The translations under genes and the position numbers were made by a program. Shown in pieces: positions 50,388 through 53,080 of a stretch of 64,000 nucleotides of DNA (within the stretch, counting starts at the first letter, position 1; each line of letters starts with the position of its first letter). Under the pieces are notes generated by a model. That model had not been told where the DNA came from. It was given only the letters and a program-made list of their open reading frames with translations, and ran no database searches. Source of the stretch: a bacterium. GTDB taxonomy: Bacteria; Zhuqueibacterota; Zhuqueibacteria; Residuimicrobiales; Krinioviventaceae. The stretch covers positions 2,304,001 to 2,368,000 of the forward strand of contig OY843751.1 of assembly GCA_963693055.1 (NCBI GenBank). The letters run 5' to 3'.

Positions 50388-50423
50388 TGTCCCTCCAATT
50401 GTAATATTATTTAAAGTTTAGTG

Positions 50424-50438
50424 CATATGACCATAGGA
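50424..50438 (+). repeat. Left inverted repeat CATATGACCATAGGA
   Basis: 14/15 match to the reverse complement of 52241-52255. Confidence 0.85.
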
Positions 50439-50476
50439 ATCATTGTTTTAATAAAAACAGAAATAAGGAGATTCTT

Positions 50477-51316
50477 ATGGCAGATGTTAAAAATAATTAT
50501 GGTTTAAAAAGACTCGAATCCAAGACAGCTAAAAACGCTATTGTCCAAAAACTGTCTCAGGATTTCAATTTGACTCCTATTATTGCCGAAGCTTACTATC
50601 AACAATTTGACCAATACTTTCAGGAACATTCCAACATTTCATTATCAGGAGGTGAAGTCGCTTATGAAGCTGTTGCCGCTGAAGAACCAGCCGGCAAACA
50701 TATCAGATTAACCCGAAAGCTTACGGTCCGTCTCAAACTAATTGACTTTAATACAGATCTGCAAGCCCTGGCTAATTATGGCCTTGCCGGACTTAGACGA
50801 CACCGGATCGCCCGTCTGACTCGACAAGCCTATGATCAGGGTGCTTTACTCAGCTATGAAGACCTGGCAATGCTTTTAACCACCAGTCCGGCCACTGTTA
50901 AACGTGACATTTATCATCTCCGTCATCACGGTATGTTTATCATGACACGAGGTATGAAACATGACATGGGTCCCGGACTGTCTCATAAAACCATCATTAT
51001 TGATCTGTATCTTAAAGGTTATACCTTTTCAGAAATAGAACAAAAAACCAATCATTCTGAAACCAGCATCAAACGTTACCTCGCTGACTTTATGCAGATC
51101 GCCCTTTTATACAAGGAAAATTTCTCTCCGAACCAGATTCGACTCATTGCAAAGAAATCCGACCGCCTGGTGCGCGAGTATATCCAACTCTACCAAACCT
51201 ATCTTCAACAAAACAATACGCGATTAAACGATCTGTTATCTCCTGCGGAACCTGGTGGCGACGCGAAAAAAAAATCCATTCCTCAACATCTATCAGGAGG
51301 CAAAGAAAATGAGTAA
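50477..51316 (+). CDS. DUF1670-like protein A
   Basis: AAGGAG RBS; QAYDQGALLSYEDLAMLL, TRG..HDMGPGLSHK, HSETSIKRY; two HTH-like regions. Confidence 0.8.
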   Translation: MADVKNNYGLKRLESKTAKNAIVQKLSQDFNLTPIIAEAYYQQFDQYFQEHSNISLSGGEVAYEAVAAEEPAGKHIRLTRKLTVRLKLIDFNTDLQALANYGLAGLRRHRIARLTRQAYDQGALLSYEDLAMLLTTSPATVKRDIYHLRHHGMFIMTRGMKHDMGPGLSHKTIIIDLYLKGYTFSEIEQKTNHSETSIKRYLADFMQIALLYKENFSPNQIRLIAKKSDRLVREYIQLYQTYLQQNNTRLNDLLSPAEPGGDAKKKSIPQHLSGGKENE

Positions 51317-52133
51317 ACCTTTGACTAAAGAACAAATTCAACTCAAAAAAATGAGACGACTTAAAGATAAAGATCTCAAGCAGTTACTACTGTACAACTT
51401 TTTGAATAGCTATGGCTATGACAAAGGAGCCATCACTGCCAATGCCATCATTGATGATATCCTTAAAATCATTGATGACTATTTCCTTGTCTCCTCTATT
51501 GATGATGACTTGCACCATATTCACTATGGGCAACTCGTCTGGATGGCTGTTCCTGTCGATGAATACCCCAAACGCGGAAAAAGTATTGCCGCTACCCGAA
51601 TGAAACCCGTTGTCCTCTCTTTCATTACTGATCAGGATACTTCTCATATCGCGCATGGTTTTGATTCCAAAACTTTAAGGAAAAGACGCCTCAAACGTTG
51701 GGTTGATGAAGCTTTTGATCAAGGTGCTCTGCTTACTCAACTTGACCTGGCTATGTTACTCGGTGTCTGTGATGCCGTTGTCAGTAAATATGTAAATGAA
51801 ATCCAAAAAGAAGGGCATCTCTTACCAACGCGTGGCAACATCCATGATCTTTCCGGCGCTATTACTCATAAACGCGAAATTATCACTCTGTATCTTGAGG
51901 GATATCTCACTCCCGAAATCGCTTTGAAAACCAAACACAGCAACGAAGCGGTTGACAGGTATATCAAAGATTACCATCGTGTTGAATTACTTTGGAAGCA
52001 TGACATTAAAAACCTTGATCAAATCAGCCAGCTGGCAAGACTTTCCAAACGTGTCATACAACAATATGTTGATCTTTTGCCTGATAAAATTAAAAATCAA
52101 AGGAGTCAGTTGAATCTTTCAAAGAACAATTAG
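51309..52133 (+). CDS. DUF1670-like protein B (paralog of A)
   Basis: AGGAGG RBS, 8-bp overlap with A; EAFDQGALLTQLDLAMLL, PTRG..HDLSGAITHK, HSNEAVDRY. Confidence 0.8.
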   Translation: MSKPLTKEQIQLKKMRRLKDKDLKQLLLYNFLNSYGYDKGAITANAIIDDILKIIDDYFLVSSIDDDLHHIHYGQLVWMAVPVDEYPKRGKSIAATRMKPVVLSFITDQDTSHIAHGFDSKTLRKRRLKRWVDEAFDQGALLTQLDLAMLLGVCDAVVSKYVNEIQKEGHLLPTRGNIHDLSGAITHKREIITLYLEGYLTPEIALKTKHSNEAVDRYIKDYHRVELLWKHDIKNLDQISQLARLSKRVIQQYVDLLPDKIKNQRSQLNLSKNN

Positions 52134-52240
52134 TTGCTTTTATATTTCCCTTTTATTACTTTCAGAATGACAGATCACCAAATTTATTAATGATCTGACG
52201 CTCCGTTGTATTTTTAGGGGGTTTTATAAATTTCTTTTTC

Positions 52241-52255
52241 TCCTCTGGTCATATG
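52241..52255 (-). repeat. Right inverted repeat (reverse complement CATATGACCAGAGGA)
   Basis: TCCTCTGGTCATATG on the plus strand. Confidence 0.85.
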
Positions 52256-52258
52256 ATA

Positions 52259-53080
52259 CTATTTTAACAAACTTAATTTTTGGGTTTTAGAAAATTGATC
52301 TCCTATGACAGTGACAAAGTAAATACCCGAAGCGCAACTGTTTCCCAGGTCATTAGTACCATTCCAATTCAATTCAAATGATTGATTTATATAGTTTTCT
52401 ACTAATAGTGTTTTTATTTTTTTTCCTGTAATATCATAAATGTAAACTGATATATTTTGAGGTTTTAAAAGTTCTGCTCTGATTTTTGTACCGGCATTAA
52501 AGGGATTGGGGTAAGCACTTAATAATGATAACGTTTCCGGCTGTCTGGATTTGTTGATTCCACTGACAACGTCTGATACAGTTATTTTGATGAGTACGTC
52601 TCTGTCATTATAAGGCTGCCAGCCACAACAATCATGAAAAAATAGCCTGTCTGTTATAGGTTCATTAAATTCGCAACCAAAAGAAACAAAAAAAGTACTT
52701 TCTATTTCAAAAGAAACCGCAATATCACAATCTAAGATAATGTTTTTATCACTTAAAACTATTTCATTCCAGCCGGTCTGTGAAGCAGTTACAGATAACG
52801 GTCCAAAAAATTCTACACTTGGCATTTTTTCATTTATATCATACAAATACAAGTTGAAGGTATTTCCTTCATCCAGTGATTCTACATAGTATTCAATCTT
52901 TTGCAACTGGCATTCACCGGTTATATCAAATCGTGTAGCTAATTTCTGAAGAAACGGGATATTGAATTTGGCTTCAATATTTGGATTACCATTGTAATAT
53001 GAAATTACCTGTTCAACTTGTGTAAATGCCAATTGTGTCGCTAATAAAATTAAACCTGCTACTAATTTCCAGTTTTGCAT
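52259..53080 (-). CDS. Secreted protein with a FlgD-Ig/T9SS-like C-terminal domain
   Basis: Signal peptide; AYPNPFN...WNGTND...ASGIYF...KLSLLK; HDCCGW motif. Confidence 0.8.
   Translation of the reverse strand: MQNWKLVAGLILLATQLAFTQVEQVISYYNGNPNIEAKFNIPFLQKLATRFDITGECQLQKIEYYVESLDEGNTFNLYLYDINEKMPSVEFFGPLSVTASQTGWNEIVLSDKNIILDCDIAVSFEIESTFFVSFGCEFNEPITDRLFFHDCCGWQPYNDRDVLIKITVSDVVSGINKSRQPETLSLLSAYPNPFNAGTKIRAELLKPQNISVYIYDITGKKIKTLLVENYINQSFELNWNGTNDLGNSCASGIYFVTVIGDQFSKTQKLSLLK

Follow-up and report, generated by a model that had tools for sequence, protein, structure and literature searches.

Prokaryotic transposases and recombinases belong to a few catalytic classes, the DDE, HUH (His-hydrophobic-His), serine, tyrosine, and DEDD enzymes. 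Tn7, through TnsD at attTn7, and tRNA-restoring integrases recognize the conserved 3′ end of a coding sequence without disrupting the gene. Here we describe element A, a 1851-bp mobile element in a 64,000-nucleotide stretch of bacterial DNA (the window; contig OY843751.1 of assembly GCA_963693055.1, positions 2,304,001 to 2,368,000) that encodes only two DUF1670 proteins, members of a family (PF07900) whose Pfam description attaches no function. Element A is probably an autonomous site-specific insertion sequence (IS) that inserts at one base in the last codon of genes ending in a secretion tail, with the DUF1670 pair likely acting together as its recombinase. The genome holds six identical copies with exact ends that share one base with the host. 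Gene ends are the target, host proteins stay intact, a site has been re-used, and the genes of a sister element, B, are under purifying selection. New here are a closed genome with 13 copies of the two elements, empty alleles verified at seven sites, and junction counts that establish a one-base overlap.

Neither protein of element A has a transposase profile match in Pfam or NCBIfam. DDE and DEDD profiles are missing for both proteins in these databases and from the 25 of 56 families listed for 137 DUF1670 members; the catalytic domain of serine recombinases is likewise missing in Pfam and from those 25 families. The conserved columns of the DUF1670 alignment hold no HUH motif, and HxxR is absent from the DUF1670 alignments.

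In outline, element A resembles IS630/Tc1-mariner elements, which have a similar size, terminal inverted repeats, two open reading frames (ORFs) that are sometimes joined by slippage, and TA at both flanks. Unlike theirs, its TA is not duplicated, the downstream dinucleotide being TG in at least 13 of 100 loci (stop TGA) and AA at an off-target site, and its proteins lack a DDE profile. IS3 elements carry a DDE OrfB and make 3–4-bp duplications, whereas both ORFs of A are paralogues from one family built of helix-turn-helix (HTH) modules and a single base is shared. With IS110/IS1111, element A has in common a sequence-specific target, a short core, sub-terminal inverted repeats, a conservative product, and subfamily-specific targets, but it has neither a DEDD profile nor a conserved noncoding region of guide size. 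Like Tn7 with TnsD and the integrases that restore tRNA 3′ ends, it reads a conserved 3′ gene end and keeps the gene intact; unlike them, it targets some 200 paralogous gene ends, is a 1.85-kb IS, and has no TnsABC or integrase profile.

The remaining classes differ at the junction as well. Serine recombinases of the IS607 type use a matched 2-bp core; here, 9 of 98 loci have unequal first core bases, which in the informative cases come from the target upstream and from the element downstream. The HUH elements IS200/IS605 and IS91 have hairpin ends without inverted repeats, whereas A has inverted repeats. Tyrosine recombinases combine an R-K-HxxR-H/W-Y box with a 6–8-bp overlap; in element A, the box is unmatched by profile and one base is strictly shared. 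Judged by sequence and junctions, element A does not show the features tested for the DDE, tyrosine, serine, DEDD, and HUH families, and by analogy it appears to work like an IS110-type or Tn7-type site-specific element. We regard it as representing a real, undescribed IS family with unexplained chemistry. A full-text literature search gave no paper for DUF1670 or PF07900; subscription journals, supplements, and ISfinder lay outside this search, so an unclassified ISfinder entry is possible.

We compared the window's genome (G000; closed, 6.5 Mb) with a genome of the same genus (G001). A 1839-bp stretch of A is present six times in G000 with zero differences, each time with different flanks, and this repetition is far above chance. 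In assembled contigs from three runs of one sample, A is collapsed into an 1854-bp piece whose loose ends match other loci; the sample may be the source of the genome, so this observation is not independent. Neither a joint nor a circle form of A occurs among the matches listed in these contigs, and contigs drop rare forms. Element A is real and recently mobile. In the window it occupies the last codon of a gene that we call X. Its ends are as follows, in window positions, with the host-gene direction opposite to that of the ORFs of A.

50412..52262, no strand: element A, 1851 bp, delimited by its copies, by junction comparison at 100 unique loci, and by G001 empty alleles of other copies
50411: the shared base as it occurs downstream in the host-gene direction, at the second position of the last Lys codon of the host
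52263: the shared base as it occurs upstream in the host-gene direction, at the point of insertion within the last codon of gene X
50412..50420: 9-bp terminal spacer of A, identical beside all 6 copies and missing from G001 empty sites
52259..52262, minus: third base of the last Lys codon of gene X and a replacement TAG stop, both supplied by the element; the same four bases at 6/6 copies
50407..50410, minus: original end of gene X, now displaced (third codon base plus TAA), read from the sequence by analogy with 7 verified empty sites
50421..50432: 12-bp imperfect palindrome GTGCATATGACC, a predicted binding box; the inverted-repeat arm continues to 50438; similar boxes lie at both ends of relatives
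52247..52258: 12-bp imperfect palindrome GGTCATATGATA, a predicted binding box from the sequence; the inverted-repeat arm begins at 52241

Both junctions of every A and B copy carry an AAATA-like five-base core, read in the host-gene direction. For the 13 elements of G000, the upstream core is AAATA in all 13, and the downstream core is AAATA in 10, AAGTA in 2, and AAAAA in 1. We collected 160 loci from relatives, of which 104 had both ends and flanks and 100 were unique; L062 and L077, mis-parsed or rearranged, were dropped from the core comparison, leaving 98 parsed loci. At the third core position, 98 of 100 loci carry A upstream, whereas the downstream copy is divided among A (51), G (44), C (3), and T (2). 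The first two core bases are equal in 89 loci and the first alone differs in 9, while the second is identical on both sides in 98/98 parsed loci, though it is G in 11. The reading frame at L200 and L209 indicates that the first core base is host-derived upstream and element-derived downstream. On the strength of these counts and of the L200/L209 frame, A extends from the third core base upstream to the first core base downstream, with one base shared. A 5-bp duplication of AAATA was ruled out, as roughly half of the loci have unequal third bases in the two core copies.

Empty alleles in G001 align without gaps to the predicted junction at all seven sites searched, which cover 8 of the 13 elements (12 sites in total) and include the AAAAA site and one AAGTA site. 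At the window locus, G001 is without gene X as well as without the element, and the sites of other copies served for the comparison. Positions 50412–50420 are absent at the orthologous empty sites of all five other A copies. An earlier note on this DNA, made from the sequence alone, had proposed an IS-like element with a 14/15 inverted repeat, empty alleles in relatives, and TA on both flanks. The repeat is present at 50424–50438 and 52241–52255, the element is multicopy with different flanks and has ends conserved in other genomes, and the empty alleles exist, at sites other than that of the window. TA does stand at 50419–50420 and 52260–52261, but it is not a duplication, since the downstream dinucleotide becomes TG or AA elsewhere and the G001 empty allele of the off-target site has no TA. 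The ends given in the note, 50421–52259, were wrong, as the terminal spacer belongs to the element, and the empty allele predicted from them keeps 11 bases too many. Correct removal of A would return gene X to its own TAA (50409–50407), at 19 bp rather than about 30 bp from the start of the proC-like gene.

The target gene and the motif at its end are the following.

52259..53080, minus: target gene X, 273 aa, with a C-terminal sorting domain of the type IX secretion system (T9SS) type (Por_Secre_tail, E 4.1e-8, residues 190–269)
52264..52282, minus: likely target motif in the last codons of gene X, A-rich at −15/−14 with T at −11, −8, −5, and −2; the site scores 11.0 bits by a weight matrix from 50 targets of other genomes

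The protein of gene X is unaltered by the insertion because the element begins with the third codon base and a stop. In G000, the last Lys codon of a tail gene directly precedes four A copies and all seven B copies, and 12 of the 13 elements (11 of 12 sites) lie at tail-gene ends; one A copy is off target. A motif scan found 218 tail-type ORFs in G000, and these account for about 23% of the gene ends that carry this core (144/618), which gives p = 9e-7 for the observed concentration. In other genomes, 91 loci have a scorable host ORF, and in 86 of them this ORF ends in such a tail; the source groups include KSB1, Calditrichota, Cloacimonadota, Marinimicrobiota, Ignavibacteriota, Bacteroidota, Poribacteria, Fibrobacteraceae, and Eisenbacteria, among others. 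The coding ends of a large paralogous gene family would thereby offer about 200 harmless landing sites per genome, a safe-site strategy.

A short DNA motif together with selection is sufficient to explain this targeting, because a weight matrix, whose fit is partly circular, expects by score-weighting 62–84% of surviving insertions at tail genes. The matrix covers positions −18 to +6 of 50 non-Poribacteria targets and holds 16.6 bits; at its lowest on-target score it finds 1126 sites in G000, among them 158 tail-gene ends and 151 other sites where insertion would break no gene. The off-target A site has no gene end, no stop, and no TA, and its empty allele is confirmed in G001. L195, L209, and L220 are inserted on the stop codon with the register of the T spacing kept. 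L052 and L057 (genomes G103 and G130) belong to a subfamily of DUF1670 pairs whose insertion sites are the loops of short palindromic hairpins; there, too, we read the flanks as sharing one base.

Of the 218 tail-type ORFs, 200 end in Lys or Arg, most with a G-x-Y 21 residues before the end. We considered this fixed upstream spacing as a second target element and rejected it, as the 21-residue distance found at nearly all occupied sites also occurs in 171 of 203 free tail genes and is non-discriminating. L044, L047, L048, L053, and L056 are also without a tail gene at the junction.

The sister element B, with seven copies in G000 (six within 4 differences, one at 93%), encodes a DUF1670 pair about 30–42% identical to the proteins of A. 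Both of its genes are under purifying selection, with ratios of nonsynonymous to synonymous polymorphism (pN/pS) of 0.06–0.09. B is about 1.89 kb long (e.g., G000:C1:987149-989039), its genes run in the same direction as the host gene, and it has other end palindromes and the same target, 7/7 copies lying at tail-gene ends. The fifth A copy follows a B copy at the end of the same gene, and the G001 empty allele places both in a single site. A second element thus re-uses the site regenerated by the first; the simplest order is A first, followed by B into the regenerated site. A second element or element end directly behind the first at one gene end, as expected under site re-use, was seen at G000:C1:507846-511584 and also at L109, L160, and L169.

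The genes of A and the signals between them are listed here.

50477..51316, plus: ORF1, DUF1670 subtype 1, 279 aa (Pfam E 9.8e-59, 198.8 bits; AlphaFold2 mean predicted local distance difference test (pLDDT) 91.4)
51309..52133, plus: ORF2, DUF1670 subtype 2, 274 aa (Pfam E 2.1e-62, 210.8 bits; AlphaFold2 pLDDT 85.3), with an 8-nt overlap with the end of ORF1
51266..51274, plus: A9 run, the likely slippage site joining ORF1 to ORF2, from A-run statistics and natural fusions
51295..51300, plus: AGGAGG resembling a Shine-Dalgarno sequence before ORF2, read from the sequence, with a putative function

Both proteins score above the curated DUF1670 cut-off of 25 bits and are 34% identical to each other. 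The earlier note had rightly seen two DUF1670-like genes as the sole gene content, running opposite to the arsR–permease–X–proC-like–thioredoxin genes, rich in C-ending codons (C3 0.25 vs 0.09–0.15 in five neighboring genes), and matching no known transposase enzyme that it recognized. It overlooked that the last codon of secretion-tail genes is targeted, that a sister element exists, and that an A-run is conserved. In G000, gene X lies inside a cluster of arsR, ArsP-type permease, proC-like, and thioredoxin genes, and it is missing from the same cluster in G001.

The DUF1670 family comprises 2901 clusters at 50% identity and constitutes the gene content of mobile elements. We found it in 27 of 133 genomes of the window's phylum, above the cut-off in 2 of 401 in another phylum, and in 1 of 14 control genomes (Methanosarcina acetivorans). 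Single-unit representatives of 240–300 residues split without exception (111/111) into an ORF1 type (63) and an ORF2 type (48); two-unit fusions and multi-unit proteins of 930–950 residues also exist. P0127–P0130, P0169, and similar proteins have 500–950 residues and two to four DUF1670-like units, some strongly diverged. Positions for Arg, Arg, His-Lys, His, Arg-Tyr, and Tyr are common to both subtypes and kept in 76–100% of sequences. AlphaFold2 models of both proteins place an N-terminal helical part and a two-strand hairpin before a winged helix and two HTH units; in ORF2, structure matches assign a winged helix to 119–182 and HTH to 184–258. A wide structure search matched DNA-binding winged-helix/HTH modules and named no catalytic fold, which does not exclude one. 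When compared with the RNase H-like fold, the models show only two or three short strands, and HTH modules occupy the fold lists.

Of 121 unique junctions, 92 have a run of at least seven A close to the end of ORF1, compared to 221 of 4217 (5.2%) ordinary gene ends. The frame of ORF2 is open back to this run in 92/92 of these junctions; the third frame, a control, is open in 31/92 and has little weight, being confounded by a stop within the overlapping start. Natural fused DUF1670 proteins join at the A-run, and its conservation makes it likely that the run fuses ORF1 and ORF2. Relative to ORF1, 68 of the 121 junctions place ORF2 in frame +1, and 50 place it in frame −1. IS1447, which defines a subgroup of the IS3 family, is reported to join its two overlapping ORFs at a stretch of nine A, with slippage in both directions at ~16% each and seven A being enough (PMC6211511). 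The elements described here are alike in having two overlapping ORFs, an A-run at the overlap, and a second frame open back to the run, and the mixture of +1 and −1 frames would fit transcriptional slippage as reported there. By analogy, the DUF1670 proteins may be expressed like those of IS1447, and some A-runs directly before a ribosome-binding site may serve that role instead.

These observations suggest a possible route for movement. ORF1 and ORF2 would act as partners, in part fused through slippage at the A-run, with HTH modules binding the 12-bp palindrome at each end and the target motif of ~24 bp. The palindromes are presumably protein-binding boxes; their distance to the shared base is 4 and 9 in A, 4 and 8 in B, and 7 and 5 in the hairpin type. 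Copying or excision of the element would yield a circular form, with 13–14 bp between the two boxes at its joined junction. Strand exchange would then occur at the single shared base, the first codon base usually, not always, matching. The least certain step is the chemistry itself: the invariant Arg, Arg, His-Lys, His, and Arg-Tyr could conceivably form an active site that cuts through a covalent phosphotyrosine, a suggestion that we make only tentatively.

From gene content and conservation, we infer that the DUF1670 pair itself catalyzes movement, and we think this likely. If the proteins are catalytic, they represent new chemistry in two 270-residue proteins and give DUF1670 a function. 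We also lean, with less assurance, toward seeing DUF1670 as a new class of HTH-built recombinase that cuts and joins alone at one shared base, acts as two subunits or as a slippage fusion, is retargeted to different short motifs (tail-gene ends, hairpin loops), and adds DNA behind a gene with no change to its protein.

Several points weigh against this interpretation. Catalysis is deduced indirectly, and the invariant His and Arg-Tyr fall in a predicted HTH of the models, where they could be structural or contact phosphates. A single shared base fits a 1-bp duplication and a 1-bp recombination core alike, and the two cannot be told apart. The matrix was trained on tail-gene targets, and the sole off-target site in G000 has a score of −10.1, close to the 90th percentile for random AA sites. 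Poribacteria copies account for some 45 of the 160 loci and are non-independent. At one tested site, G001 reads AAA where G000 predicts AAG. Finally, L131, a frameshifted copy at a non-tail site, is flanked by a 32-bp direct duplication that lies outside what the model explains.

The main rival explanation holds that the DUF1670 pair binds only the ends and the target, and that a recruited host enzyme (a Xer-type recombinase, a topoisomerase, or another transposase) cuts and joins. Elements that borrow XerC/D are known, G000 has seven tyrosine-recombinase matches, and the modeled proteins look like strings of DNA-binding modules. We nevertheless consider this unlikely: the one-base geometry and the 13–14-bp spacer recur with different palindromes and targets across many phyla, and near-invariant His, Arg, and Tyr are retained in both paralogues at ~30% identity, which is probably more than adaptors usually keep. 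A DUF1670 protein could instead be a very diverged tyrosine recombinase, making the element a Tn554- or RIT-like unit with two integrases. The spacing H170...H193...Y201 resembles the R-x(23)-H-x(9)-Y end of Xer proteins, the two paralogues recall XerC/XerD, and the product is conservative and carries its own core. A tyrosine-recombinase motif was the initial reading of these residues and is unsupported by profile comparison: HHalign against a profile of five G000 tyrosine recombinases returned probabilities of 0.4% and 4%, with weak alignments on the N-terminal part, outside the catalytic box. PF00589 is also absent from the 25 families listed for 137 members, and the overlap is 1 base as opposed to 6–8, which together make this relationship improbable.

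Two further alternatives concern the choice of target. Nearly all insertions hit the last codon of genes from a single protein family, as would be expected if the target were chosen at the level of the protein or ribosome, through the nascent secretion tail or a terminating ribosome. The off-target site without gene end or stop, the three stop-codon insertions in register, and the hairpin-loop subfamily speak against such a route, and the DNA motif with selection already predicts most of the bias; we regard it as very improbable. The very precise targeting and short core, together with 126 noncoding bases behind ORF2 in the window copy, would suit an RNA from the noncoding end that guides insertion, as in IS110/IS1111. 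This region measures 68 bases in L051 and ~20 in L052 and L057, is not conserved among relatives with the same target, and accompanies proteins with no DEDD profile match, so the chance of an RNA guide appears close to negligible. Rfam gave no match, no RNA holder was found among the matches listed, and promoter-like sites are at chance level. Searched with ORF1 alone, viral contigs, PLSDB plasmids, and INPHARED phages yielded nothing. For the reasons given above, catalysis by the DUF1670 pair itself is the reading that we prefer.

Several minor observations concern element ends. An orphan right end of B (G000:C1:333437-333460) is fused to a truncated tail gene at codons of an S-T-G-I motif, which resemble the B palindrome. 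B-like left ends lie behind four further tail genes (G000:C1:5975648, 3844075, 5684749, and 1730447). A mini-element at the last of these was rejected as unproven, as G001 has the same hairpin without the B start; it is probably an ordinary hairpin. In L091, L103, and L105, the same foreign sequence splits the end palindrome, and its pattern resembles what we take to be the 3′ end of a group II intron.

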